A stretch of 54,646 bases of DNA from a virus (IMGVR_UViG_3300045988_087663:1-54646), one strand, 5' to 3'; positions 1-54,646 are shown, counted from the stretch's first letter. A program made the numbers and translations. The notes: generated by a model from the letters alone, not told the origin.

Positions 1-97
1 ATTTTTTTTTGAAAAAGTTTACATAAAACTGTTTACATTTCCATTTTTATGTGTTACAATATACTTACAAATTAAGAAATACATAAAACAAGATACA
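1..97. repeat. Direct terminal repeat, identical to 54550-54646 (assembly closure overlap or terminal redundancy)
   Basis: Both window ends read A-T9-GAAAAAGTTTACATAAAACTGTTTACATTTCC...AACAAGATACA over 97 nt. Confidence 0.95.
32..60 (+). promoter_or_regulatory. Sigma-A-type promoter of the repeated cassette family (TTTACA-17 nt-TGtTACAAT)
   Basis: -35 TTTACA 32-37, 17-nt spacer, extended -10 TGTTACAAT 52-60. Same ...TTTTTATGTGTTACAAT core as 7593, 11276, 14463, 17963, 22986. Confidence 0.75.
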
Positions 98-3905: not shown

Positions 3906-5176
3906 TGGTAGAATTACAGATTTTGAACCGAGTGCTAAAAGACAAAAATACTTCTCTTTTAGATTTGAATGACATAACAAGAGATTATTTCAATCAATAT
4001 CAAGAAGAATATGACTACATAATGGAACACAAGCAAGAATATGGAAATGTTCCAGATTTGGAAACATTCCTAGCAAAGTTCCAGGATTTTGATGTAGTCA
4101 ATGTATCTGAAAGCACTGAATATCTTGTAAATACTTTTAGAGAAGAATATCTATATTCCCAGTCGGTTCCAGTGCTCACAAAGATGGCGGAACTATTACA
4201 GACAGACGCCTATTCAGCAGTAGACTATCTTAAATCAAAATTGCCGGAATTAAAAATTGATGGAGCAGTAAAAGGTACTGACATTATATCACAAGCAAAG
4301 GAAAGGCTTGAAGAGTGGAAAGAAACAAAAGATAATCAAGATACACACTTTATAGCAAGCGGATTTGAAGAGATAGATACAGATCTGGGAGGATGGCATA
4401 AAGGGGAGGAGCTTGTAGTTTTATTTGCACGAACAGGACAAGGAAAATCTTGGGTGCTTATTAAAATGTTAGAACACGCATGGAAAGTATATCATGCAAG
4501 AGTAGGACTTTTAGAGCCGGAAATGTCAGCAAGTAAAACAGGATATAGATTTGATACAGTACATCAACATATATCATCAAAAGCACTGTATAAAGGTGAA
4601 GATGTGCAGGGCTATGAAAAGTATATAAATAAGTTAGCTGACGATGGTACTCCATTCTATGTTGCACACCCTAAAGATTTTCAAAAGAAAGTAACAGTTT
4701 CAAAATTGAAAAGCTGGTGTGAATCAAATAAATTGGATATTCTTGCAATAGATGGTATCTCTTATCTGCATGATGAACGAGGAAAAAGAGGAGATAATAA
4801 AACAACACAGTTGACGAACATATCTGAAGATTTAATGCAGTTGAGTATTGACTTAAAAATACCTGTGTTAGTAGTTGTGCAGTCAAATAGAGAGTGTGTA
4901 CAAAATGAAGATTTACAATTAGACAATATTAGGGATTCTGATGGAATTGCTTATAACGCATCAATCGTTCTTTCAATTCAGCAAAAAGAAGAAGGCTTGC
5001 AAATACAGGATGTGAAAGCAAGAAATTCAAAAGTTGGAATTAAATGGGTTTATGCCTGGGATACAGATAAAGGTACTTTTGACTATATCCCTAACCCGAA
5101 AAAAGGAAAAGAAGACGATGAAAAAAGCGAAGATTTAAGGCGTAGATATCATGATAGAGAAAGTGAGGAATATTAA
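3905..5176 (+). CDS. dnaB: Replicative DNA helicase (DnaB family)
   Basis: 423 aa. Walker A ARTGQGKSW, RecA-like C-terminal domain, N-terminal DnaB-like helical domain. Confidence 0.8.
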   Translation: MVELQILNRVLKDKNTSLLDLNDITRDYFNQYQEEYDYIMEHKQEYGNVPDLETFLAKFQDFDVVNVSESTEYLVNTFREEYLYSQSVPVLTKMAELLQTDAYSAVDYLKSKLPELKIDGAVKGTDIISQAKERLEEWKETKDNQDTHFIASGFEEIDTDLGGWHKGEELVVLFARTGQGKSWVLIKMLEHAWKVYHARVGLLEPEMSASKTGYRFDTVHQHISSKALYKGEDVQGYEKYINKLADDGTPFYVAHPKDFQKKVTVSKLKSWCESNKLDILAIDGISYLHDERGKRGDNKTTQLTNISEDLMQLSIDLKIPVLVVVQSNRECVQNEDLQLDNIRDSDGIAYNASIVLSIQQKEEGLQIQDVKARNSKVGIKWVYAWDTDKGTFDYIPNPKKGKEDDEKSEDLRRRYHDRESEEY

Positions 5177-5177
5177 A

Positions 5178-5468
5178 ATGATTTTTGTAATTGATAAGCT
5201 GAAATATGATACAGATAAAATGGAATTGATTTCTGAAAAATGTAAATATGCTTACACTTGGGTATTAACATTAACAAATACAAAAATGAGCAGTTATGGA
5301 AAAGATGTTAAATTGTGGAAAAGTAAAAAAGGAAATTGGTTATTGACATATCGTACAGAATATTATTTAAAAGGAGTTAAACTACTTGAAGAAGATGTTA
5401 AAAAGTTATTGCTGAAATATGATTTACAAAAGTATGAAGAATTATTTGGAGAGCTTGAGGAGGCATAA
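5178..5468 (+). CDS. Hypothetical protein
   Basis: ATG 5178 after GTGAGGA, which lies in the dnaB 3' end. In frame with track ORF 5151..5468. Confidence 0.6.
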   Translation: MIFVIDKLKYDTDKMELISEKCKYAYTWVLTLTNTKMSSYGKDVKLWKSKKGNWLLTYRTEYYLKGVKLLEEDVKKLLLKYDLQKYEELFGELEEA

Positions 5469-5493: not shown

Positions 5494-6531
5494 TTGGCAA
5501 AGAAAGTGAGGAATATTAAATTGGATTTACTAGAATTATTAAATCAAGAACCACCAATAATCCCAAAAAATTCTACAGTTTTGGATAATTTTGTAAAAGC
5601 GTATTCAATTATAAATAAACCGCAATACAAAACTATTTTATGTTTAATTTCCGGTGGTAGTGATAGTGATGTTATGATGGATATTATATACAAAGTAGAT
5701 GTGAATAAGAAAGTAACCTATGTATGGTTTGATACAGGATTGGAATATGAAGCTACAAAAAGGCATATTGAGTATCTAGAAAAGAAATATGATGTAAAAA
5801 TCATGAGAGAGAGAGCTATTAAGCCTATTCCTTTAACTTGTAAAGAGTATGGTCAGCCATTTATATCTAAATATGTTTCGGAACTTTTAGATAGGTTGCA
5901 GAAAAAAGATTTCGATTTCAAAGATTATAATTATGATTATATGTTAGATAATTACGGTAAATTGTTAGCGTCTTGGTGGTGTAACAAGCACGAAAGTAAT
6001 CAGTTCAATATTGATCGAAATCTTTATTTGAAAGAATTCTTAATAGATAATCCACCAGCATTTAAGATATCAAGTAAATGTTGTGATTACGCTAAAAAGA
6101 ATGTGTCAAAAAAACTAATTAAAAAATATAATATTGATTTGATGATTGTGGGTGTACGAAAAGCTGAGGGTGGGATAAGAGCGACAGCCTATGAAAATTG
6201 TTTTTCCGAAGAATTACACGGAGCCGCACAATATAGACCTCTCTGGTGGTACAATAATGATGATAAGAAAGATTTTGAAGATTATTGTGGAATAGTTCAT
6301 AGTGATTGCTATAAAAAGTATGGATTTCCTAGAACTGGTTGCTGTTGTTGCCCTTATGGGTGGGTGCACAATAAACTATTACACGAATTAGAACAGACAA
6401 AGAAATATGAACCAAAATTATATAAAGCAGTAAATAATGTATTCAAAGATAGTTATGAATACACAAGACAATATTTACAGTTTAGAAAAGAAATGAAAGA
6501 CAAAGAAAAAGGAAGGAAGAGATTGTTTTGA
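5494..6531 (+). CDS. PAPS reductase / DndC-like PP-loop ATP pyrophosphatase family protein with C-terminal Cys cluster and ..RKRLF tail
   Basis: PP-loop SGGSDS, VWFDTGLEYEAT, CCCCPYG cluster. Start is TTG 5494 or, better supported by GTGAGGA, TTG 5521. Confidence 0.7.
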   Translation: MAKKVRNIKLDLLELLNQEPPIIPKNSTVLDNFVKAYSIINKPQYKTILCLISGGSDSDVMMDIIYKVDVNKKVTYVWFDTGLEYEATKRHIEYLEKKYDVKIMRERAIKPIPLTCKEYGQPFISKYVSELLDRLQKKDFDFKDYNYDYMLDNYGKLLASWWCNKHESNQFNIDRNLYLKEFLIDNPPAFKISSKCCDYAKKNVSKKLIKKYNIDLMIVGVRKAEGGIRATAYENCFSEELHGAAQYRPLWWYNNDDKKDFEDYCGIVHSDCYKKYGFPRTGCCCCPYGWVHNKLLHELEQTKKYEPKLYKAVNNVFKDSYEYTRQYLQFRKEMKDKEKGRKRLF

Positions 6532-7868: not shown

Positions 7869-7907
7869 AAAACAATGTGAAGCGATAACACATATAAACA
7901 CTAATAT

Positions 7908-7979
7908 AGCCCTATAGCCAAAAGGTAAGGCACAGGACTTTGACTCCTGCATTTACCGGTTCGACTCCAACTAGGGCTG
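7908..7979 (+). tRNA. tRNA-Gln(UUG)-like gene with a degenerate T-stem
   Basis: Acceptor AGCCCTA/TAGGGCT. Anticodon stem CAGGA/TCCTG with loop CTTTGAC (anticodon TTG 7940-7942). T-loop TTCGACT, but the T-stem ACCGG/CCAAC has only 2 Watson-Crick pairs. Confidence 0.5.
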
Positions 7980-8076
7980 TTATACCCTGGCAGACAAAAA
8001 GAAAAAAGCTCCTAGATATAGAAAATGCGGTGATTGGGGTATGAGACAGGAATAAAGCTGGGAATACTGTCACAAT

Positions 8077-8150
8077 GGAAGATTAGCTCAGCAGGTGAGA
8101 GCATCCGGCTCATAACCGGACGGTCATAGGTTCAAATCCTATATCTTCCA
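8077..8150 (+). tRNA. tRNA with CAU anticodon (Met, or Ile2 if lysidinylated)
   Basis: Acceptor GGAAGAT/ATCTTCC, D-stem GCTC/GAGC, anticodon stem TCCGG/CCGGA with loop CTCATAA (CAT 8111-8113), T-arm ATAGG-TTCAAAT-CCTAT. No encoded CCA. Confidence 0.85.
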
Positions 8151-8211
8151 CTCATAGAATATAGCTTCTGTGAAAAACTAAAACAACTAAAAAAGAAAGG
8201 AAAAAAGAATT

Positions 8212-8892
8212 ATGGGAAGAATTAACTATGAAGATGTAGATAAGTATGGAAACAATTCAGATACGGAATTTCTGAAGCTGGAAAATGATGGAGACTGTGC
8301 TACAGTGCAAATCATGGCACATGATATGGAGGACATTGACATTTTTAATTGTCATGAGGTGCAGGTCGGCTATTATGACAATGGTAATGCAAAAACAAGA
8401 CCAGTATCTTGTTTGAGAAACTATGATGATCCTTTGGATGTTTGCCCCCTTTGTGAAGCAGGGATGAAACAAAAAGTGGTAATGATGCTGGCTATGGTCG
8501 ATCAGGAAGATGGAAAGATCAAAATTTGGAATCGAGGAAAGACTTTTATCCCAAAGGTTAAGAATCTGATTAACCGTTGGGGAGATATGACGGAGCGTCC
8601 AGTGGATATTATAAGAAACGGCAGAAAAGGGGATAAAAAAACAACTTACAATATTCAGATTTCACCGGAAGAACCGATTGATATTAGCCAGTACGAAAAG
8701 CCGGAATTTTTAGGTGGGTATATCATGGATAAGACGGCGGATGAAATGCAGGAATATCTTGATACAGGATGTTTTCCTGATGCAGATAATAACGATAATG
8801 AAGATAATACACAAGTAAGACGCAGAAACACGGAACCACTTCCATCAAGAAGAGGAGCAAGCAGAGCAACAAGCAGACGAGCTGGTATGTAG
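8212..8892 (+). CDS. Putative ssDNA-binding protein (T4 gp32-like zinc site)
   Basis: H-x18-C-x10-C-x2-C (NCHEV..VSCLRNYDDPLDVCPLCEAG) resembles the gp32 His/Cys3 site. Immediately upstream of the polymerase. Confidence 0.45.
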   Translation: MGRINYEDVDKYGNNSDTEFLKLENDGDCATVQIMAHDMEDIDIFNCHEVQVGYYDNGNAKTRPVSCLRNYDDPLDVCPLCEAGMKQKVVMMLAMVDQEDGKIKIWNRGKTFIPKVKNLINRWGDMTERPVDIIRNGRKGDKKTTYNIQISPEEPIDISQYEKPEFLGGYIMDKTADEMQEYLDTGCFPDADNNDNEDNTQVRRRNTEPLPSRRGASRATSRRAGM

Positions 8893-11275: not shown

Positions 11276-11304
11276 TTGCAATCTTCCTTTTTATGTGTTA
11301 CAAT
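11276..11304 (+). promoter_or_regulatory. Repeated-cassette promoter (TTGCAA-17-TGtTACAAT)
   Basis: -35 11276-11281, -10 11299-11304. GTTAAAGATAACAG 11313-11326 lies 9 nt downstream. Confidence 0.75.
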
Positions 11305-11351: not shown

Positions 11352-11714
11352 ATGAGCATAGAAAAATTAGAATCAATGAAGGGTTCAGAGTTAATTGCAT
11401 ACGCTGACAAGTTAGGAGTGAAGGTAAACTGTAACAAGGAAAGAACTGGATTAAAAGAATCAAAGGCAAAGGCTATTGATAAGATTGTAGCTTTTGAAAA
11501 AGAACATCCCACTAAAAAGGAAACGTCAAAAAAAGAAAATATTAAACATACCTTTATTCTTCCGGATTGTTTTATAAGTAATAGTAAATATTATGATAGT
11601 GTAAACTGTTATAAAATTAAAAAGATAAAAAGACTGTGGCTGAAATTTATCCACAAAGAAAGTCAATATGTGTTTATGTCAGAAAAGAAACTGACACAAC
11701 AGGATATAATGTAG
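11352..11714 (+). CDS. Hypothetical protein with Rho-N/SAP-like N-terminal motif
   Basis: ATG 11352 after AAAGGAGG. LESMKGSELIAYADKLGVKV resembles Rho N-terminal/SAP helix-extended-helix. Confidence 0.5.
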   Translation: MSIEKLESMKGSELIAYADKLGVKVNCNKERTGLKESKAKAIDKIVAFEKEHPTKKETSKKENIKHTFILPDCFISNSKYYDSVNCYKIKKIKRLWLKFIHKESQYVFMSEKKLTQQDIM

Positions 11715-11795
11715 TAAAGAATGATTATAAATATTATTTACCTGTTAAAGTAACCATTCCATATGAAGATATTAAAAGATTGGAGGAGCTTATCT

Positions 11796-12539
11796 ATGAG
11801 CGTTAATAATATATCAAAAATAATGCAATATGTGGAGCCCATTGCGAGGGCTCCAGTAGTTATTGATGGTACGGTATATGATAATCAAGCAGTATCTATA
11901 AAATTGAACAAGAATTTTTTACTATCGGACAGTTGTGATATGTGCGGAAAGTGTTGTATAAATGAAGCCAATATATTCACAAAATCTGAAATGAAGAACA
12001 TTATAGATATTGATTATGTCGAATATGAAAAATGGAACCTTGATACCTCTGTACCTGAATTACTAAAAAATGAAATACAAGAAATCATTGTAAATATAAA
12101 CGGAAATAATATTCCTATATATAAGGTGAGCAAAAAACATAACTATAAAGATATTCCAGATAGAGGTAATTTAGATAGATGTAGATGGTTGGTTCAGAAA
12201 TCTGAAACATTATTTGTGTGTGGGATTCACCCTGTGGTTAGTATAACTTGTGATATGCCTCATTTAAGATTTTTCTTTAATAGAAAAACTAAACATCTTT
12301 CATTAGGAGTTGCAGAATATGGTAGAAACTGGGCATTAAAATGTCCAGCAAAATTTGACAAAACAAGGGTAGATTTTAAGTTATCGAAGTTATACCATTT
12401 ACAAAGAGTATGTGACGATTTAAAAATAGACACAAGACTTCCAGAAATAATATCATATATAAAGAAAATGACACCAAATAATTATATGTCGATGTTGGAT
12501 GTAGATATACTTAATACAAGTAGTAGGAGGTTATTTTAA
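11796..12539 (+). CDS. YkgJ-like CxxCxxCC cysteine-cluster (Zn/Fe-chelating) protein with ..SRRLF tail
   Basis: CDMCGKCC motif plus downstream Cys/His residues. ATG 11796 lies 9 nt after GGAGG. Stop overlaps the dpdA start (TAATG). Confidence 0.6.
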   Translation: MSVNNISKIMQYVEPIARAPVVIDGTVYDNQAVSIKLNKNFLLSDSCDMCGKCCINEANIFTKSEMKNIIDIDYVEYEKWNLDTSVPELLKNEIQEIIVNINGNNIPIYKVSKKHNYKDIPDRGNLDRCRWLVQKSETLFVCGIHPVVSITCDMPHLRFFFNRKTKHLSLGVAEYGRNWALKCPAKFDKTRVDFKLSKLYHLQRVCDDLKIDTRLPEIISYIKKMTPNNYMSMLDVDILNTSSRRLF

Positions 12540-13459
12540 TGTCATTCGATTTATATTTTGCATCAAGCGGAAACAAAGATATGGAGCTATTGTTGGAAAA
12601 AAAGCATTGTAACCGATTATTCACACAGCTTGAAAAATCATCTATAAAGAGATGTATTGAAATGAAAACGAGAAGGAATCCATCAAAGTTATTTATAGAT
12701 TCAGGTGCATTTACATCATGGACAAAAGGAATATCAGTTGATGTGGACAGTTATATTGATTATATAAATAATCTTGACGATAAAATAACAATATGTGCTC
12801 AGGTAGATTGTATTCCGGGTACATTTGGTAGAGTAAGAACACAAAAAGAAATTGAAGAATCTCCTATTAAAAGTTGGGAAAATTATCTGTATATGAAAGA
12901 CAAATTAAAATCGAGGGATAAATTGATTCCTATATTTCATCAAGAGGAAAGTTTTGAACATTTGAAAAAAATGCTTGAATATAGACATTTAGACGGAAAA
13001 CCAATTGCATATATAGGAATATCACCTAGTAATGATAGGTCACAAGCGGATAAGGAAGATTTTATTGCAAGAAGTTTTTATATCATAAAACATAGCTCAA
13101 ACCCAAATGTAAAAACTCATGCGTTTGGTATGACAAACCTATCCATATTAGAGAGGTACCCTTATACATCTGCTGACAGTACATCATGGAAAATGTCCGC
13201 GGCATTTGGTAGCATAATGACAAGATTCGGAACAATAGTAATAAGTTCTGAACAGCTTAAAGATAAAAAACATATTGAATATATGCCCTCAACTGTTAAG
13301 GAGTATGTGAAGTCGGAATGCTTGAAATATGGGATTGATTATGATATGTTATACACTGATTTTGGTACAAGAGCAAAATTTAATATAAATTATCTCAAGG
13401 ACTGGGCAGATAATTATGAGTATAAGCCTGTTACAGTTCATAAGAGATCACTATTTTAA
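12539..13459 (+). CDS. dpdA: DpdA-like DNA (7-deazaguanine) transglycosylase, TGT superfamily, with ..KRSLF tail
   Basis: LFIDSGAFTSW (compare TGT DSGGFQ catalytic Asp motif). HAFGMTNLSILERYPYTSADSTSW (compare TGT G-x-D-M-F-D region). Adjacent to yhhQ. Confidence 0.7.
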   Translation: MSFDLYFASSGNKDMELLLEKKHCNRLFTQLEKSSIKRCIEMKTRRNPSKLFIDSGAFTSWTKGISVDVDSYIDYINNLDDKITICAQVDCIPGTFGRVRTQKEIEESPIKSWENYLYMKDKLKSRDKLIPIFHQEESFEHLKKMLEYRHLDGKPIAYIGISPSNDRSQADKEDFIARSFYIIKHSSNPNVKTHAFGMTNLSILERYPYTSADSTSWKMSAAFGSIMTRFGTIVISSEQLKDKKHIEYMPSTVKEYVKSECLKYGIDYDMLYTDFGTRAKFNINYLKDWADNYEYKPVTVHKRSLF

Positions 13460-13467
13460 ATTGGTTA

Positions 13468-13506
13468 TAAGGTGCTGTTTTGTAAGCTTCTGACACCCAG
13501 CACCTT
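13468..13506 (+). promoter_or_regulatory. Hairpin followed by an A-rich tail and SD, upstream of yhhQ (candidate regulatory RNA)
   Basis: Stem AAGGTGCTG 13469-13477 / CAGCACCTT 13498-13506 with a 20-nt loop ending ..CUGACACC. A-rich tail runs to AAAGGAG 13527-13533. Confidence 0.4.
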
Positions 13507-13542
13507 TATAATAAATATTAAAAATAAAGGAGTGTTGTAAAA

Positions 13543-14178
13543 ATGAACAACAAAAAAGTATCAAGTATCTTATTAACCCTATGCGTGGTATTTGTATCAT
13601 GTATTATTATGAGTAATGTCTTGGCAAATGAAACTTTACAAGTGTATAAGTGGAGTTTAGATGCGGGCATATTTTTATTTCCAATAACCTATATATTATC
13701 CGATATTTTTTCAGAAGTATATGGTTACAAATGGTCAAGACGTGTCACATGGATGGCAGTAACATTGAATTTAATATTTTCATTGCTTATAATCTTGGCT
13801 TGTAAATTACCTCACCCTATTTGGTTTGATGGTTCGCATTTTGAATTAGCACTATGTGGTTCTTTTAGAATTGTTCTTGCAAGTGCTATTTCTTATCAGT
13901 TCGGAGATTTGATAAACGATATTATATTTAAGAATATGAAAAGAAATCATTCAGATTCAAAGGGATTTATCATGCGAGCTATATTATCATCATTAGGGGG
14001 GGAATGTGTAGATTCGGCACTATTTGTTATGATAGCATTTTTAGGGACAATGCCATTTTCTGAAATTTTCCCTATGATTATGATGAATATTATCTGTAAA
14101 ACCGGTTATGAAGTTATGATTTGCCCATTGACAAATATAATAATGAAAAAAATTAAAAAATTAGAGGATGCCAAATGA
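13543..14178 (+). CDS. yhhQ: Queuosine-precursor (preQ0/preQ1) transporter, YhhQ/VUT family
   Basis: Polytopic membrane protein. FPITYILSDIFSEVYGYKWSRRV and SYQFGDLINDIIF match YhhQ-family hallmarks. Confidence 0.75.
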   Translation: MNNKKVSSILLTLCVVFVSCIIMSNVLANETLQVYKWSLDAGIFLFPITYILSDIFSEVYGYKWSRRVTWMAVTLNLIFSLLIILACKLPHPIWFDGSHFELALCGSFRIVLASAISYQFGDLINDIIFKNMKRNHSDSKGFIMRAILSSLGGECVDSALFVMIAFLGTMPFSEIFPMIMMNIICKTGYEVMICPLTNIIMKKIKKLEDAK

Positions 14179-14462
14179 TAAAGATTTATATATCTGGTAA
14201 AATAACAGGAACAACAGATTATATACAGAGATTTGAGAGAGCAGAAAAAGCTCTCTCAAATTATATAGTAATCAACCCGGCTAAAGTAAACGCACAACTT
14301 CCGGTGGAAACAACATGGAAAGAATATATGCAGATGTCAATGACAATGCTTAAAATGTGCAATGCTATTTATATGCTGAAAGGTTGGGAAGATAGTAAAG
14401 GAGCAAGATCAGAATATAATTATGCAGTAGAAAATAATTATAAAATAATTTTTGAAAAGTAG
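14175..14462 (+). CDS. DUF4406 / nucleoside 2-deoxyribosyltransferase-like protein
   Basis: MIKIYISGKITG...VINPAK...WKEYMQMSMTMLKMCNAIYMLKGWEDSKGARSEY matches the DUF4406 pattern. ATGA overlap with yhhQ. Confidence 0.6.
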   Translation: MIKIYISGKITGTTDYIQRFERAEKALSNYIVINPAKVNAQLPVETTWKEYMQMSMTMLKMCNAIYMLKGWEDSKGARSEYNYAVENNYKIIFEK

Positions 14463-14491
14463 TTTACATTTTGTTTTTTATGTGTTACAAT
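14463..14491 (+). promoter_or_regulatory. Repeated-cassette promoter (TTTACA-17-TGtTACAAT)
   Basis: -35 14463-14468, -10 14486-14491. Begins directly after the stop of the preceding gene. Confidence 0.7.
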
Positions 14492-14522: not shown

Positions 14523-15899
14523 TTGAATTATGATGAATTTCTAAAAACAAAAATAGAGCAATTCAAGCCATGCGGTTTTGATTGTGAACCTTCAAACGAA
14601 AATCTATTTGATTTTCAAAGAGCTATTGTAAAGATAGCACTTAAAAGAGGGAAATCTGCACTGTTTCTTGACACTGGACTGGGAAAAACTATATGCCAGT
14701 TATCATGGGCAGATGAAGTGTATAAGCACACTGGAAAGAATGTACTTATACTTGCCCCACTTGCTGTATCAGTTCAGACAAAAAGAGAGGGGGAAAAGTT
14801 CGGTATTGATGTAAATATTTGTAGAACGCAGAAAGATGTAAAAGACGGAATAAACATTACTAACTATGAAATGTTAGAACATTTTAATGCTGATGAATTT
14901 ATAGGAATTGTACTTGATGAAAGCTCAATACTAAAATCATTTTCCGGAAAGACTACAAAAGCATTGATTGAAAAGTTTAGAAAAACAGAATATAAACTTG
15001 CTTGTTCTGCCACTCCTGCTCCAAATGATTATGAAGAATTGGGTAATCACTCTGAATTTTTAGGAGTAATGACAAGAACAGAAATGCTTGCTACTTATTT
15101 TGTGCATGATGGTGGAAACACAAGTAAATGGAGATTGAAAGGTCACGCAGAAGAACAATTCTGGCATTGGGTATCAAGCTGGGCAAGCGTAATGAAAACT
15201 CCAGAAGATATAGGTTATAATGGAGATAAATATAAATTGCCTGCCTTGAATGTGCAAGTTGTAAAAGTAGCTGGAGAAACAAAGAGAGGAAAGCTGATTC
15301 CTAGTGTTGTAACAGATTTACAAGACAGAAGAGAAGCAAGAAAAGAAAGTCTTAATAAAAGAGTATCAAAGTGTGCAGAACTTATAAAATCTCACAATAT
15401 GGAAAATTGCTTGATTTGGTGTGATTTTAATGACGAAGGAAACGCACTTGAAAAAGCAATTCCAAACGCTGTGCAAGTTGCCGGTTCAGATACAAACGAA
15501 AATAAAGAAAAATCATTATTAGGATTTTCAACCGGTGATATAAAGTTTCTTGTAAGTAAGCCTAAAATTGCCGGATTTGGTATGAACTGGCAGAATTGTA
15601 ACAATATCATTTTCTGTGGCATATCAGATAGTTATGAAAAATACTATCAAGCTATAAGAAGATGTTACAGGTTCGGGCAGACAAAAGAAGTAAATGTATA
15701 CATTGTTATAAGTACAAGAGAATTGCCGGTTTATAACAATATACTTGAAAAAGGCAGACTTGCTGATGAAATGAATAAAAAAATGGTTGAAATTGCATCC
15801 AAGTATCTTGAAGATGAAATAAAGAACACAACAAGAATGGCGGATGAATATGATGCAGAAATAAAAATGAAACTACCAGAATGGGAGGAAATGAAATGA
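14523..15899 (+). CDS. SNF2/DEAD-like superfamily 2 helicase
   Basis: Motif I DTGLGKT, motif II LDESS, motif III SATPAPN, motif VI QAIRRCYRFGQ. TTG start 7 nt after AGGAG. Confidence 0.75.
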   Translation: MNYDEFLKTKIEQFKPCGFDCEPSNENLFDFQRAIVKIALKRGKSALFLDTGLGKTICQLSWADEVYKHTGKNVLILAPLAVSVQTKREGEKFGIDVNICRTQKDVKDGINITNYEMLEHFNADEFIGIVLDESSILKSFSGKTTKALIEKFRKTEYKLACSATPAPNDYEELGNHSEFLGVMTRTEMLATYFVHDGGNTSKWRLKGHAEEQFWHWVSSWASVMKTPEDIGYNGDKYKLPALNVQVVKVAGETKRGKLIPSVVTDLQDRREARKESLNKRVSKCAELIKSHNMENCLIWCDFNDEGNALEKAIPNAVQVAGSDTNENKEKSLLGFSTGDIKFLVSKPKIAGFGMNWQNCNNIIFCGISDSYEKYYQAIRRCYRFGQTKEVNVYIVISTRELPVYNNILEKGRLADEMNKKMVEIASKYLEDEIKNTTRMADEYDAEIKMKLPEWEEMK

Positions 15900-16792
15900 A
15901 AGGACAAAGTGCAGTAAATGTTGAAAATCAGTTAATCACAGATAAATATGCTTTATATAATGGTGATAGCTGTGAGATTATGAAAGGAATACCTGATAAT
16001 AGTATTCACTTTTCTATATTCTCTCCGCCTTTTGCAAGTCTTTATACCTACTCAAACAGTGATAGAGATTTGGGAAATTGTAGGACAACAACAGAATTTT
16101 ATGAACATTTCAAGTTCATAGTTTCTGAATTGTATAGAATTACAATGCCTGGAAGATTAGTAAGTTTTCATTGTATGAATTTGCCAACAAGCAAGGAAAG
16201 AGATGGTTTTATAGGCATTGAAGATTTTAGAGGATTGTTGATTAAGTTATTTCAGGATAGTGGATTTATTTATCACTCAGAAGTTTGCATTTGGAAAGAC
16301 CCAGTAATCGCAATGCAGAGAACAAAGGCACTTGGCTTATTGCATAAGCAGTTGAAAAAAGATAGTTGTATGAGCAGACAAGGTATTCCAGATTATCTTG
16401 TAACAATGAGAAAGCCAGGAGATAACCCAGAAAGATGTGAGCATACAAATGAAACATTCCCAGTCAGCAAATGGCAGAATTATGCAAGTCCAGTATGGAT
16501 GGATATAAATCCTAGTGATACTTTGCAAGCGAGAAGTGCAAGAGAAGAAAAGGACGAAAAGCATATATGCCCTTTACAGTTGCCAGTTATAGAAAGAGCT
16601 ATAGAGTTGTGGACTAACCCGAATGATATAGTATTTACTCCATTTTTAGGAATTGGCTCAGAATGTTATAAGGCAATAGAAATGGGCAGACGAGCAATGG
16701 GAATTGAACTCAAAAAGAGTTATTATGAGCAGGCTTGTAAAAATGTAGCAAGTGTGCCATTTAACAGTCGTTATAAAAAAGGATTATTTTAA
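15896..16792 (+). CDS. DNA N4/N6 methyltransferase (beta class) with ..YKKGLF tail
   Basis: Motif IV SPPF precedes the AdoMet motif FTPFLGIGSE. ATGA overlap with the helicase stop. GGAGG 7 nt upstream of ATG 15896. Confidence 0.8.
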   Translation: MKGQSAVNVENQLITDKYALYNGDSCEIMKGIPDNSIHFSIFSPPFASLYTYSNSDRDLGNCRTTTEFYEHFKFIVSELYRITMPGRLVSFHCMNLPTSKERDGFIGIEDFRGLLIKLFQDSGFIYHSEVCIWKDPVIAMQRTKALGLLHKQLKKDSCMSRQGIPDYLVTMRKPGDNPERCEHTNETFPVSKWQNYASPVWMDINPSDTLQARSAREEKDEKHICPLQLPVIERAIELWTNPNDIVFTPFLGIGSECYKAIEMGRRAMGIELKKSYYEQACKNVASVPFNSRYKKGLF

Positions 16793-16804: not shown

Positions 16805-17899
16805 ATGAAAGTAGTAACAAGCAGAATGAAAGATGCAGTAAACAAAGCAATCAAAGGAGCAGGATTTAATAATCTTATTCCTATTACATCAATGATAGGT
16901 ATTAAATTATCAGATGGAAAGTTACGGTTGCTTACAACGGACATGACAAATACACTTTGTATTATCATTGACAAGGTCTCCGGCGTGGATATGGATATCA
17001 CGGTTGATGCTGACAAGTTCGGAAAGTTGATTTCAAAGATCACTTCCGAGGACATTGAATTATTGGTTATTGACGATGTTTTATCAATCAAAGCCAACGG
17101 AAATTATAAGATTCCATTGATTTCAGACGAAGACGGACTTATTTCATTCCCAGATATTAAGCCATTAGATGATAAGAATGTGCAGTGTTCAACCAAACTT
17201 TCAAGTGTTATGCAGGCTTATAATATCAATAAATCAGCACTTGCAAAAACACTTGAGAATCCGTCTTTAACAGGTTATTATTGTGGAGATACTGTTATTA
17301 GTACGGATGCAAATGTCATTACATTCAATGGGTTTAAGATGTTTGATAATGAAGAACCTATTCTTATTTCCGCTCAACAGATGCAGTTATTAACATTGAA
17401 TACAAAGGAGGATATTGAAGTTTATATTGGAAAAACAGGTATTCAGTTCGTGACAGAAGATGTTGTGATTGATGGAGCATTGATGGAAGGAATTGAAGAT
17501 TTCCCAGCTAATGAAGTAAACGCTTATCTTGATGAAGCATTTACATCTTCTTGCAAAGTACCAAAAGATTTACTTCTTTCCGTACTTGATAGACTTGCAT
17601 TATTCATTGAACCGTATGACAAGAACGGAGCATATTTCACATTCGGAAGAAAGGGAATCAATATTCACAGTAAAAAGGATGCTTCAACAGAGACTATCAA
17701 CTATGTGGAAAGTAAGAACTTTGCACCATTTGTATGCTGTGTAGATATTCCAATGTTGAAGGAACAGTTGCAGGCTAATCCGGACGATACGGTGAAGATT
17801 TGCTATGGAAATGAAAATGCGTTGAAGATTGAAAGCGGAAAAGTGACACAGGTTATAGCATTGCTTGAAGATGAAGAACTTGACAATATGACAGAATAA
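16805..17899 (+). CDS. dnaN: DnaN-like sliding clamp (beta-clamp family)
   Basis: 364 aa. LRLLTTDMTNTL, VISTDANVITF, GALMEGIEDFP and LLSVLDRLALF are spaced as in the three DnaN domains. Confidence 0.65.
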   Translation: MKVVTSRMKDAVNKAIKGAGFNNLIPITSMIGIKLSDGKLRLLTTDMTNTLCIIIDKVSGVDMDITVDADKFGKLISKITSEDIELLVIDDVLSIKANGNYKIPLISDEDGLISFPDIKPLDDKNVQCSTKLSSVMQAYNINKSALAKTLENPSLTGYYCGDTVISTDANVITFNGFKMFDNEEPILISAQQMQLLTLNTKEDIEVYIGKTGIQFVTEDVVIDGALMEGIEDFPANEVNAYLDEAFTSSCKVPKDLLLSVLDRLALFIEPYDKNGAYFTFGRKGINIHSKKDASTETINYVESKNFAPFVCCVDIPMLKEQLQANPDDTVKICYGNENALKIESGKVTQVIALLEDEELDNMTE

Positions 17900-27428: not shown

Positions 27429-27791
27429 ATGCAAAGATTTCCTAGATGCTGGGATAAAATCACTTGTATAAATTTTCTTCAAAGGAAAATTATTATAAAT
27501 TCCATAGCTTATTATGAATTGGATGCCCCAGTTATTTCCGATAAACAATATGATGAATTGTGCCATCAGTTGGTTAGTCTACAAAAAACTGTAGATATTT
27601 CAAACACTCAATATGGTTATTGTTTTCAAGATTTCGACGGAAGCACCGGGTTTGATTTGTATGGCCGACTAAATGAGTACGATAAGACTTATTTGAAACA
27701 TATTGCTGAGATAGGTTTACGAAGTTACAAGTCAGAAACCAATCCTCCAACTAAAAAAGTAAAGAAGAAAAAGAAAGGGGGCTTATTCTGA
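27429..27791 (+). CDS. Stand-alone NAD-dependent-ligase domain Ia-like protein with poly-Lys ..KKGGLF tail
   Basis: NSIAYYELDAPVISDKQYDELCHQLVSLQ parallels LigA [30 protein letters not shown]. No adenylation KxDG domain. Confidence 0.5.
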   Translation: MQRFPRCWDKITCINFLQRKIIINSIAYYELDAPVISDKQYDELCHQLVSLQKTVDISNTQYGYCFQDFDGSTGFDLYGRLNEYDKTYLKHIAEIGLRSYKSETNPPTKKVKKKKKGGLF

Positions 27792-28775: not shown

Positions 28776-28804
28776 TTGACAAAATAAGTTTTATGTATTA
28801 CAAT
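28776..28804 (+). promoter_or_regulatory. Promoter, variant cassette (TTGACA-17-TGtATTACAAT)
   Basis: -35 TTGACA 28776-28781, -10 TACAAT 28799-28804. Near-identical to the promoter at 52131. Confidence 0.8.
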
Positions 28805-29115: not shown

Positions 29116-29628
29116 ATGCTTACATCAGAACAAAAGAAAATAGTTGAGGATAATCACAACCTCATATATTTTTACATAAACAAAAATAACTTGGATGAGA
29201 CTGAATATTATGACCTATTAGCGTTATCTTTATGTAAAGCAGCAAAAAAGTTTGATCCAAGCAAAGGTAAATTTTCCACTTTTGCAATGCATTGTTTTAA
29301 GATGGATCATTTGATTGAGATAAGAAATAAGAAAGCGACAAAAAGAGACGCACTTGTGATAAGCTTGTCCAGTGAGACTTGTCCTGACAGTGAAAATAGA
29401 AGAACGGAATTGTATGACATTATACCAGGTGACAGAGATGTGTTTGATAAAATGATACTTCTTGACATACCAAAGCTACTGGATGATGACAGGCTTGTTC
29501 AATTATGTAAACTGTCTTATCTGGGGTATGGTCAACAGGAAATAGCAGATATGGTTGGAGTTAGTTAAAGTTTAGTTTCAAGACAGTTAAAAATTGCAAA
29601 AAAGATATTGAAGGAGCATTGTATATGA
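29116..29628 (+). CDS. Sigma-70 family factor (regions 2 and 4) interrupted by an in-frame TAA at 29566-29568
   Basis: Region 2 FDPSKGKFSTFAMHCF. Region 4 YLGYGQQEIADMVGVS-TAA-SLVSRQLKIAKKILKEH. The extended frame ends in an ATGA overlap with mazF. Confidence 0.7.
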
Positions 29629-29960
29629 TTAAAAGAGGAGAAGTATATTGGGTTGATTTTGCAGAAGTATTTCCAACTGGGAATCACTACCAAAGAGGGA
29701 TAAGACCGGCTATCATTATTAGCAATGATTATAACAATACATATTGTGAAAATGTCAATATTATCCCATTAACCACAAGGGTTAAAAAATTGCCGGCTCA
29801 TGCGGACATTGTTTTCAAAGGAAGAATCAATAATGCGTTGTGTGAACAGATAACAACGATAGACAAGAGATACCTGAAGGGTTGGTGTGGAAATGTTTCA
29901 AAAGCAGAACTCAAAAAAATAGAAAGCTGTATTTTATGTCAGTTAGGAATGAGGAAATAA
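29625..29960 (+). CDS. mazF: MazF/PemK-family endoribonuclease toxin
   Basis: IKRGEVYWVDF..GNHYQRGIRPAIIISND..NIIPLTT..CEQITTIDKRYL. ATG 29625 lies 8 nt after AAGGAG. Confidence 0.8.
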   Translation: MIKRGEVYWVDFAEVFPTGNHYQRGIRPAIIISNDYNNTYCENVNIIPLTTRVKKLPAHADIVFKGRINNALCEQITTIDKRYLKGWCGNVSKAELKKIESCILCQLGMRK

Positions 29961-52159: not shown

Positions 52160-52193
52160 ATACATATAGTAAAACAAAGAAAGGATGATTGTT

Positions 52194-52457
52194 ATGACAA
52201 ATACAGCAATTATATTAGGGTATATGCAACTTCATAATATGGACCCGGAGAAAACCATATTACATACATATGCGCAGTGGAAAAAATTAGGGTATCAGGT
52301 CAAAAAGGGAGAAAAATCAAAACATAAAATATCAGTGTGGAAAAGATCCATAAAGAAAGTCAAAAAAGATGATGGAGAAAAAGAAGAAGTGGACACAGGC
52401 AGATATTTCTTGAAAGAATCTGCATTTTTCACACAAGATCAAGTCGAAAAAATTTAA
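52194..52457 (+). CDS. ArdC N-terminal (DUF1738)-like ssDNA-binding domain protein
   Basis: HTYAQWKKLGYQVKKGEKSKHKISVW resembles the ..F..W..LG..VKKGEK.. core. First gene after an early promoter. Confidence 0.4.
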   Translation: MTNTAIILGYMQLHNMDPEKTILHTYAQWKKLGYQVKKGEKSKHKISVWKRSIKKVKKDDGEKEEVDTGRYFLKESAFFTQDQVEKI

Positions 52458-54523: not shown

Positions 54524-54559
54524 ATTCCAGCACCATTTTAGGTGTTGGAATTTTTTTTT
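54524..54559 (+). terminator. Rho-independent terminator
   Basis: ATTCCAGCACC-ATTTTA-GGTGTTGGAAT followed by T9. The tail is the first bases of the terminal repeat. Confidence 0.8.
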
Positions 54560-54646
54560 GAAAAAGTTTACATAAAACTGTTTACATTTCCATTTTTATG
54601 TGTTACAATATACTTACAAATTAAGAAATACATAAAACAAGATACA
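54550..54646. repeat. Second copy of the 97-nt terminal repeat (contains the promoter equivalent to 32-60)
   Basis: Identical to nt 1-97. Confidence 0.95.

Follow-up and report, generated by a model that had tools for sequence, protein, structure and literature searches.

How could a phage equip its DNA with a 7-deazaguanine base when it carries none of the genes that make such a base? The question is raised by one operon in IMGVR_UViG_3300045988_087663, a metagenome-derived viral sequence of 54,646 nucleotides (nt), which as a whole is called the window here. The operon encodes a relative of the transglycosylase DpdA (open reading frame 2, ORF2), a cysteine-cluster protein (ORF1), a transporter of the YhhQ family (ORF3) and a DUF4406 protein (ORF4), and it contains a riboswitch-like RNA in front of the transporter gene. 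Our reading, to which we give a probability of about 0.7, is that the operon lets the phage hypermodify its own DNA with a 7-deazaguanine that is obtained and not made, by a transporter-fed, riboswitch-controlled system with a modification of the mdPreQ1 type as its product. The features in question are, in order:

11276..11304, + strand: operon promoter, made up of TTGCAA, 17 nt and the extended -10 element TGTTACAAT; it includes the 15-mer TTTATGTGTTACAAT at 11290-11304
11352..11806, + strand: first operon gene, function unassigned, present here in two frames (11352-11714 and 11636-11806)
11796..12539, + strand: ORF1, dpdM-like, 247 amino acids (aa)
12539..13459, + strand: ORF2, dpdA, 306 aa
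13469..13532, + strand: preQ1-I-like riboswitch candidate, found with its own covariance model
13543..14178, + strand: ORF3, yhhQ, 211 aa, containing PITYILSDIFSEVYGY
14175..14462, + strand: ORF4, DUF4406, 95 aa
14463..14491, + strand: next promoter copy, with the 15-mer at 14477-14491, directly after ORF4; it opens a unit of SNF2-helicase and DNA-methylase genes

The four ORFs lie on the + strand where the earlier note on this DNA had placed them, with the motifs it described and with two overlaps, ORF1 with ORF2 as TAATG (by coordinates) and ORF3 with ORF4 as ATGA (in the sequence). Its description of all four as translationally coupled goes too far, since ORF2 and ORF3 are separated by 83 nt and this spacing is structured. 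ORF1 is also listed as 11763-12539, but its true start is ATG 11796, as in the earlier note, judging by the length of its homologs, about 247 aa, and by a GGAGG located 8 nt ahead of it.

The enzyme expected to insert the base is ORF2. It matches phrog_887, annotated as queuine tRNA-ribosyltransferase, with an E-value of 1.7e-51, and over its full length it is 45.3% identical to DpdA of Bacillus phage Flasso and 42.8% identical to DpdA (gp7) of Streptococcus phage Dp-1. Its AlphaFold2 (AF2) model has a predicted local distance difference test score (pLDDT) of 91.4, and the 50 best Foldseek matches of this model in the PDB are all tRNA-guanine transglycosylases (TGT), QTRT1 or ArcTGT (E of about 1e-7 to 1e-5, probability 1.0, query TM-score of about 0.6). 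The motifs IDSGAF (D54-F58) and SADSTSW (S211-W217) are invariant or almost so in 39 ORF2 homologs, and D54 of the first, D213 of the second and D90 are invariant in all of them. Comparisons of sequence were silent in several cases: Pfam and NCBIfam TGT models gave no match at E <= 1, searches of PDB sequences by phmmer with the single sequence and then with a profile returned noise only, and an hhalign comparison with E. coli Tgt paired LFIDSGAF with ILTDSGGFQ in a non-significant 20-column match (E 0.11). The link between ORF2 and TGT is visible through fold and PHROGs only. Taken together, ORF2 is a phage DpdA of the Dp-1/Flasso subfamily and, from its sequence and model, a predicted DNA guanine transglycosylase. 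The assignment of 12539..13459 to the TGT/DpdA superfamily in the earlier note thus stands on phrog_887, 43-45% identity to known DpdAs and a TGT fold, and no profile search placed this ORF outside that superfamily.

Homologs of ORF2 at about 50% identity include several DpdA-QueF fusions, and the DNA of Dp-1 contains dPreQ1 as 1.7% of G (PMC6884629). Both findings tie this DpdA subfamily to preQ1, not to preQ0, as the queuosine precursor that is used. The fusion proteins are 517-536 aa long and retain an xxL[FI] motif in the linker. Relatives of DpdA in the bacterial scan were found on five contigs binned into metagenome-assembled genomes (MAGs; Prevotella, Mollicutes, Lachnospiraceae, Bacteroidales and Clostridia), labels that are too mixed for naming a host.

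With its TGT fold, and with the label queuine tRNA-ribosyltransferase attached to some of its matches in public records, ORF2 could be thought to act on tRNA and not on DNA, so that the phage would manipulate host queuosine and translation. We regard this as highly improbable. The closest characterised relative of ORF2 comes from a phage with dPreQ1 in its DNA, and the gene sits inside a replication and anti-restriction block, beside a gene for DpdM, a protein proposed to act on DNA. Moreover, both tRNAs of the phage lack a GUN anticodon, so neither of them is a queuosine substrate. These are a tRNA-Gln(UUG) at 7907-7980 and a tRNA-Met(CAU) at 8077-8151, located between the primase gene and an ORF at 8212-8892.

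If ORF2 inserts a 7-deazaguanine into DNA, where does the base come from? Among the concatenated ORFs from outside the structural block, a Pfam scan identified no FolE, QueD, QueE, QueC or QueF. Custom hidden Markov models (HMMs) of QueC, QueD, QueE, QueF, FolE and QueT, built from Que proteins of related loci, found no gene in a six-frame translation of the whole window (best E 0.004). The first 97 bases of the window (1-97) are identical to the final 97 (54550-54646), an exact overlap of its ends which indicates that the genome is complete, with a size of about 54.5 kb and either a circular assembly or terminally redundant ends. The failure of the earlier note to recognise folE, queD, queE, queC or queF can therefore be extended to a complete genome, from which queT is missing as well. 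A PAPS-reductase-like ORF was considered as a hidden QueC and rejected; it shows a weak PP-loop similarity only (E 0.004) and is a clear member of PAPS_reduct/phrog_424. Since there are no genes for the synthesis of preQ0 or preQ1, import and the host are the only possible sources of the base.

The candidate for import is ORF3. It covers the whole PF02592 profile (E 5e-38, 131.2 bits against a cutoff of 27.2) and exceeds the cutoff of TIGR00697 (83.9 bits against 50.95), and by these profiles it is a member of the Vut_1/COG1738 family of queuosine-precursor (preQ0/preQ1) transporters, the YhhQ/VUT family to which the earlier note had assigned it. NF008406, the equivalog model of the E. coli-type preQ0/preQ1 transporter, was not reached (50.8 bits against a cutoff of 252), and by this model the substrate of E. 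coli YhhQ cannot be transferred to ORF3. Indirect support for preQ0 or preQ1 as its cargo comes from its linkage to dpdA and queF and from the preQ1-I-like leader of its gene. For the gene context we compared 24 loci from IMG/VR with ORF1 relatives, seven with DpdA relatives, and contigs reached via protein look-ups, all annotated by blast and purpose-built HMMs; these related loci carry L-numbers where they need to be told apart. A yhhQ gene lies near dpdA in about 25 of them.

An alternative is that host queCDEF are the main source of the base and that the YhhQ of the phage merely tops up the pool or recaptures leaked base. Use of host preQ0 and uptake were the two options proposed for DpdA-only phages by Hutinet et al. 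2019, who also reported that some phages encode YhhQ (PMC6884629), so the idea of uptake is not new. Phage CAjan has yhhQ within its dpdA cluster, and deletion of this gene left modification at the wild-type level (PMC7544227) because synthesis supplied the base; a host pathway could likewise make YhhQ auxiliary in the window phage. The riboswitch-like element, too, would turn yhhQ off at a high intracellular level of the base, which is compatible with a minor contribution of the transporter. Against this alternative, the transporter and its regulatory RNA are retained beside dpdA in about 25 divergent loci without de novo genes in the sampled flanks, and among relatives the transporter and the de novo cassette alternate in one slot, though some relatives carry both. 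We consider the host as main source to be somewhat unlikely and prefer import by YhhQ. The statement that the phage imports the base instead of synthesising it is thus upheld as far as the missing synthesis and the presence of YhhQ are concerned, with supply by the host as the alternative to its import half. Besides the possible auxiliary role of YhhQ, two more facts count against transporter-fed modification: the window encodes no queF, and no modification was detected in the DpdA-only Mycobacterium phage Orion (PMC6884629), so the DNA of the window phage could be unmodified too.

The next question is what happens to the base once it is in DNA, and here ORF1 gives an indication. This protein contains the cluster CDMCGKCC and had been put forward as an undescribed partner of DpdA. 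It is instead a divergent member, as judged by profile comparison, of the DpdM family described in 2023. With hhalign the ORF1 family profile aligns with DpdM of Vibrio phage VH7D (99.3%, E 8.2e-21, 216 columns), the enzyme with validated activity, and with DpdM of Cellulophaga phage phiSM (97.7%, E 2.2e-12; pairwise blastp E 2e-8), and the sole PHROG match of ORF1 is phrog_21666, the family of VH7D DpdM. Residues C47, C50, C53, C129, C142, C152, C183, H145 and H156 are invariant across the ORF1 family and C54 is nearly so; seven conserved Cys, one His and a GRxWA motif align with phiSM DpdM, C183 being located just beyond the end of the alignment. Scores against PF03692 are marginal for all three proteins (22.4 bits for ORF1, 25.7 for phiSM DpdM and 16.4 for VH7D DpdM). 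The AF2 model of ORF1 (pLDDT 88.8) has three significant matches among the viral predicted structures of BFVD, two of which are as long as phiSM DpdM (217 aa) and VH7D DpdM (304 aa). The model matched no structure in the PDB and the profile no PDB sequence; tblastn of ORF1 against 50,697 phage records gave nothing significant, and no ORF1 relatives were found in the bacterial-genome scan.

Cui et al. 2023 characterised DpdM as YkgJ-like, its Cys cluster being located at the N-terminus, with two predicted metal sites and no known methylase fold, and VH7D DpdM was shown to convert dPreQ1 to mdPreQ1 (PMC10516641). In phiSM, dpdM adjoins dpdA (PMC10516641); it lies immediately upstream, the same position as that of ORF1 in the window. 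ORF1 is therefore predicted to be an enzyme that tailors dPreQ1 in DNA, most likely an N-methyltransferase giving mdPreQ1. Several points weaken this prediction. The identity of ORF1 to known DpdMs is as low as about 22%, its motif is CxxCxxCC in place of the published CxxxCxxCC, the DpdM activity measured in E. coli was low (PMC10516641), and ORF1 is missing in L005, a close relative with 92% DpdA identity.

The same low identity and different Cys spacing would fit a DpdM-family protein that carries out some other tailoring reaction on dPreQ1 or preQ1, or that serves DpdA as a metal-dependent accessory factor. Tandem DpdM paralogs in two related loci suggest diversified chemistry, the module of relatives often comes with a short-chain dehydrogenase, and the mechanism and methyl donor of DpdM were themselves not settled by its publication (PMC10516641). 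However, the homology between ORF1 and DpdM is full-length, every metal ligand is conserved, and ORF1 co-occurs with queF or yhhQ, as expected of an enzyme acting on preQ1. A different reaction or an accessory role thus appears distinctly unlikely, and methylation of dPreQ1 is the preferred prediction. The tandem paralogs are located at 7219-8798 in L027 and 7219-8795 in L031. The analysis as a whole widens the DpdM family, so far a few members from marine phages, to several hundred clusters of sequences; those with examined context are on phage contigs, some of them labelled as gut or rumen samples.

ORF1 relatives lie beside dpdA, yhhQ or queF in about 30 related loci, and the commonest order is PolA-ORF1-DpdA-YhhQ-(short-chain dehydrogenase)-DnaN, with an ORF1 identity of merely 33-39%. 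In L022, L023, L027 and L038, ORF1 is found beside queF-queC-queD-queE-folE, and L037 has the order ORF1-DpdA-queF-yhhQ. In L007, which lacks ORF1, queC-queD-queE-folE without queF follow dpdA; this de novo cassette occupies the same slot by dpdA, which makes transporter and cassette alternatives. Dp-1 and Flasso have queF and lack ORF1, in agreement with the finding of unmethylated dPreQ1 in Dp-1; that either phage has homologs of ORF1 or ORF4 beside dpdA was considered and rejected. An exception is L011, where ORF1 lies by two DNA methylases with no dpdA in view. This distribution describes ORF1 as a frequent but optional tailoring module that travels with preQ1 supply.

A short-chain dehydrogenase gene (adh_short, FabG-like phrog_3142) follows yhhQ directly, behind the RNA element, in many relatives (L013 7261-7905, L019, L021-L030, L022, L050, L065 and L076), and follows ORF1 in L022. 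Its product is a candidate for a further tailoring or salvage enzyme. The gene is not present in the window.

What may control the transporter? The 83-nt gap between dpdA and yhhQ contains an RNA element that is absent from the earlier note. Its stem P1 consists of 9 bp between AAGGUGCUG (5' strand, 13469-13477) and CAGCACCUU (3' strand, 13498-13506). The 20-nt loop UUUUGUAAGCUUCUGACACC (13478-13497) starts with UUUUGUAA, contains CUUCU complementary to the Shine-Dalgarno sequence (anti-SD) at 13487-13491 and ends with C13497, which abuts the 3' strand. An A-rich tail (13507-13528) follows, and then the Shine-Dalgarno sequence (SD) GGAG at 13529-13532. All divergent loci have this layout in front of yhhQ, regardless of the upstream gene. 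Across loci the stem sequence varies freely, while the loop always opens with UU(UU)GUAA and ends with a C before the 3' strand (the pre-stem C), and its anti-SD is UCCUUU or CUUCU; outside the loop, conservation extends to the closing G-C pair and the A-rich tail.

MAFFT alignments of the element were structurally inconsistent, and the covariance model was built from a gap-poor seed of six sequences. Under this model the window element scores 30.7 bits (E 5e-4 to 9e-4). The model identified 26 elements at E <= 0.1 in 560 kb of related loci and ten at E <= 0.05 in 694 kb from IMG/VR, one of the latter on a contig already counted, and all matches (36/36, in about 1.25 Mb of loci) are located directly upstream of yhhQ or queF. 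A loose DNA pattern scan of IMG/VR gave mostly chance matches, with the real element in 10 of the 80 loci scanned. Some phages carry two elements, one before yhhQ (with the short-chain dehydrogenase gene) and one before queF-queC-queD-queE-folE. In Dp-1 the element (L002 77-124) is found in the leader of the que-dpdA operon, between the annotated -10 box and the queF start codon. All instances are on phage contigs or on phage-like contigs binned into MAGs. Further sites include:

L006, 6994-7048: element
L013, 6545-6596: element
L027, 719-777 and 1522-1576: two elements
L037, 1418-1470: element
L065: two copies
others: further elements in related loci

P1 is supported by covariation. Among 24 distinct sequences it is paired in 98.6% of cells, compared to 64.4% in shuffles, with 42 double-change cells compared to 8.1. 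Its covariation score is 0.882 against 0.177 for shuffles (0 of 500 as high), and slid controls reach at most 0.152. Compensatory changes occur in five of six P1 pairs, and the closing G-C pair is present in 23 of 24 sequences. The alignment used for these pair counts is model-fitted and favours the structure; the raw sequences show the same compensatory changes. A second pairing, P2, of the 3' tail with the loop over the SD, is compatible with all sequences and cannot covary as the SD is fixed. An A-U for U-A swap in P2 is seen in L027 at 1522-1576.

These features resemble those of preQ1-I riboswitches, whose hallmarks are a UU after the 5' strand of P1, a C before its 3' strand, an A-rich tail and an anti-SD in the loop, and which control queCDEF, queT and yhhQ (PMC11625349). 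Read from the aligned sequences, the phage element shows all of these hallmarks, and its primary sequence resembles the Rfam PreQ1 consensus, P1-UUCGuAAaCcUC-P1'-AUAAAAAACUAAGG. We infer that the element is a preQ1-I-like riboswitch candidate that may bind preQ1 and regulate yhhQ. Sensing of preQ1 by the RNA (less certainly of preQ0) would support YhhQ as the carrier of that base, with uptake throttled by feedback. A full-text search of the literature returned no paper on a preQ1 riboswitch in a phage, which is no proof of novelty.

Some results speak against a preQ1 riboswitch. Neither the window element nor that of Dp-1 matched PreQ1 of Rfam 15 even at E <= 10, the loop has an insertion of 4-8 nt relative to Rfam PreQ1, and the fold z-score of the window element is only -1.84. 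The Rfam PreQ1 model scored 12.3 bits, far from its gathering score of 39, on the short version in L008 only. At the gathering score there was no match of any Rfam family in the window or in 10 loci, and no known Rfam riboswitch was thus found in the dpdA-yhhQ gap. One could therefore argue that the conserved RNA is no ligand sensor and only occludes the SD as a hairpin, serves as a processing site or acts as a stabiliser, shared by descent, the more so as P2 is untestable by covariation and the pair counts come from a model-fitted alignment. Such a passive element would have to explain why it is found before two unrelated types of gene, yhhQ and queF, behind any upstream gene and sometimes twice in one phage, and why the loop keeps its UU, GUAA and pre-stem C, and the element its closing G-C pair and A-rich tail, when the sequence of P1 varies freely; the likeness to the Rfam PreQ1 consensus speaks against it as well. 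We find it unlikely and favour a preQ1-I-like sensor.

The fourth protein of the operon appears to be of less consequence. ORF4 is a DUF4406 protein, as proposed before (PF14359, full length, E 8.5e-26, 90.6 bits against a cutoff of 22), and it matches phrog_355, annotated as nucleoside 2-deoxyribosyltransferase, at E 1e-28; a search of the PDB found nothing. The fold family of nucleoside 2-deoxyribosyltransferases is known to cleave N-glycosidic bonds. ORF4 might accordingly be a working part of the pathway that releases the free 7-deazaguanine base from nucleosides or nucleotides, and since its start overlaps the yhhQ stop it lies behind the same riboswitch-like leader, an arrangement that is kept in L003 and L005. 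On the other side, DUF4406 occurs in 375 phage records of many taxa (phages of Vibrio, Mycobacterium, Pseudomonas, Arthrobacter and other hosts), with MazG-like pyrophosphatase and dCMP deaminase among the annotations beneath its matches. It lies by yhhQ or dpdA only in the close relatives L003, L004, L015 and L005, is displaced to elsewhere in the locus in L029, and is absent from the other related loci that carry ORF1, dpdA or yhhQ. A dedicated role in base release is thus quite improbable, and DUF4406 is probably a general nucleotide-metabolism gene; its suggested status as a new partner of dpdA has to be given up.

A further common feature of the DNA enzymes of this phage is a short C-terminal tail. 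Six of the 83 window ORFs end in LF, compared to 0.24 expected, and five of these six are DNA enzymes with basic tails:

DpdA, 12539-13459, + strand: tail HKRSLF
ORF1, 11796-12539, + strand: tail SSRRLF
N6/N4 DNA methylase, 15881-16792, + strand: tail YKKGLF
PAPS-reductase-like protein, 5494-6531, + strand: tail GRKRLF
ligase-N-terminal-like protein, 27429-27791, + strand: tail KKGGLF

Of the roughly 110 DpdA homologs with fewer than 400 aa, 90 have LF as their last residues and most others LI, LW or LL; Dp-1 DpdA ends in QRRLF and Flasso DpdA in QGKLF. The tail recurs in the ORF1 family and in methylases, and it is disordered in the models of DpdA and ORF1. The tail is similar to QxxLF, the clamp-binding pentapeptide of bacteria, and the phage encodes its own sliding clamp, DnaN (16805-17899). 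The basic LF tail may therefore be a candidate docking motif for the sliding clamp, which would explain how a post-replicative base exchange keeps pace with replication. PolA has no LF tail, and a literature search found no interaction data for a contact between DpdA and the clamp, Dp-1 included. As a tentative proposal, whose correctness we doubt more than we expect, the RNA is an undescribed phage-borne subtype of preQ1-I, present in Dp-1 too, and DpdA, DpdM and further DNA-modifying enzymes of these phages dock on the clamp via [KR]xxLF. DnaB-like helicases of related loci end in an acidic [DE]VF (17 of 19) and primases in ExF or IIF. By their appearance, these are C-terminal docking tails of a second conserved class in this group of phages.

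The operon is set in a genome whose genes are all on the + strand. The promoter proposed at 11276..11304 is real, and its 15-mer TTTATGTGTTACAAT recurs: there are six exact copies (starting at 46, 7607, 11290, 14477, 17977 and 23000), all on the + strand and all between ORFs, and copies with one mismatch, again on the + strand and between ORFs, at 28790 and 52145. By this pattern the 15-mer is the core of an extended -10 promoter that partitions the replication and early region into transcription units. A generic promoter scan of the window found 38 promoters compared to 33.8 expected, i.e. not above chance. The next copy of the 15-mer immediately 3' of ORF4 makes the operon genes a single promoter-to-promoter unit. 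The first gene of this unit, an ORF at 11352-11714 that continues to 11806 in another frame, between promoter and ORF1, is not mentioned in the earlier note. It is broken by a run of A5 at 11619-11623, which is A6 in the near-identical contig L003, a difference that is either a homopolymer sequencing error or a genuine frameshift. The gene is missing from most related loci and, on this distribution, is no conserved part of the module.

The Pfam scan identified a replication block of DnaB, primase, PolA, DnaN, a Cas4-like nuclease, RecA and clamp loader, as well as a small-terminase gene. The nucleotides of the operon had zero blastn matches in the 50,697 phage records, and on this comparison the phage belongs to a lineage with no cultured close relative.

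The PolA gene is split by a 250-aa ORF in close relatives (L003 3705-4457; L015 5672-6424), and in L005 a GIY-YIG homing endonuclease look-alike, judged by eye, is located after PolA in the place of ORF1 (4643-5362). Mobile endonuclease genes thus appear to reshuffle the PolA/ORF1 region. The PAPS-reductase-like protein at 5494-6531 (PF01507, phrog_424), encoded between the helicase and primase genes, has a PP-loop SGGSDS and a CCCC cluster; its ORF is missing from the otherwise 95-98% identical contig L015 and is thus a variable insert. That it is a further DNA-modifying enzyme is speculative. Right after the operon, a SNF2-type helicase gene overlaps an N6/N4 DNA methylase gene (14523-16792). 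An ORF with an ArdC N-terminal (anti-restriction) domain and an ORF for a PemK/MazF-like toxin are found at 52185-52457 and 29619-29960, respectively. From these annotations, the phage carries several anti-restriction or conflict genes.

A possible sequence of events can be put together from these components. YhhQ would import the free base from the medium, either preQ1 or preQ0 that is then reduced by host QueF. After replication, DpdA would swap guanine for preQ1 in the double-stranded DNA of the phage, and the DpdM-like protein would then act on the aminomethyl group of dPreQ1, with N-methylation to mdPreQ1 as the likeliest reaction. The DNA modified in this way would resist restriction enzymes; 7-deazaguanine modifications shield phage DNA against such enzymes, and dPreQ0 shields it in vitro against Cas9 too (PMC10484667). 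When the base is plentiful, a preQ1-I-like pseudoknot would hide the SD and lower the translation of yhhQ and of the coupled DUF4406 gene.

One locus would then provide for import, insertion, tailoring and sensing of the base with zero biosynthesis genes, and the guess that DpdA-only phages scavenge their precursor becomes directly testable. A prediction of this model is that the level of modification, and hence resistance to restriction, depends on the environmental supply of preQ0 or preQ1. Binding of preQ1 would make the RNA a riboswitch that controls a viral DNA-modification pathway, metering how much of the base is taken up or made, and at the same time a variant missed by current Rfam models, so that similar elements may be under-annotated. 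If LF docking is true, hypermodification would be coupled to the replication fork.

Comparison with known systems shows which parts of this locus are shared and which are its own. The RNA is like preQ1-I (RF00522, types I-III) in its short P1, the UU, the pre-stem C, the A-rich tail, its position in yhhQ or queF leaders and the pairing of its 3' end with the loop across the SD. It differs in a loop that is longer by 4-8 nt before the pre-stem C (with inserts such as UGACA or UUUGAAAC), in a longer tail that is missing the conserved tail C of type I, and in scores far below the Rfam threshold. ORF1 shares with the DpdMs of phiSM and VH7D full-length homology, the eight-Cys two-metal pattern, a marginal PF03692 score and a model without PDB match, and with phiSM also the location of its gene directly upstream of dpdA. 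In contrast to the published DpdMs, it has about 22% identity to them, CxxCxxCC instead of CxxxCxxCC and a basic C-terminal LF tail, and it is partnered with a transporter rather than with queF.

Among whole systems, the DpdA-only phages (group 3 of Hutinet et al. 2019) are alike in having DpdA without preQ0 synthesis, and reliance on host or uptake was proposed for them; they differ in that modification is absent or found in traces, and no set of transporter, tailoring enzyme and regulatory RNA has been described in them. Escherichia phage CAjan (folE-queD-queE-queC-yhhQ-dpdA, dPreQ0; Kot et al. 2020) also has YhhQ within its dpdA cluster, yet it carries a full preQ0 pathway, a dispensable yhhQ and a DpdA that inserts preQ0, with no DpdM among the assigned genes of the cluster. 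Dp-1 (queF-queC-queD-queE-folE-queT-dpdA; Hutinet et al. 2019) shares with the window the DpdA subfamily at 43% identity, the xxLF tail, the replication order DnaN, Cas4-like nuclease, RecA and clamp loader, a transporter gene by dpdA, and the same riboswitch-like RNA in its operon leader (L002 77-124). Dp-1 makes preQ1 with five biosynthesis genes, has QueT in place of YhhQ and has no DpdM, whereas the window has no biosynthesis genes, YhhQ and an added DpdM-like gene. The locus is thus a transporter-fed variant of the known phage 7-deazaguanine systems, with mdPreQ1 as its predicted product.

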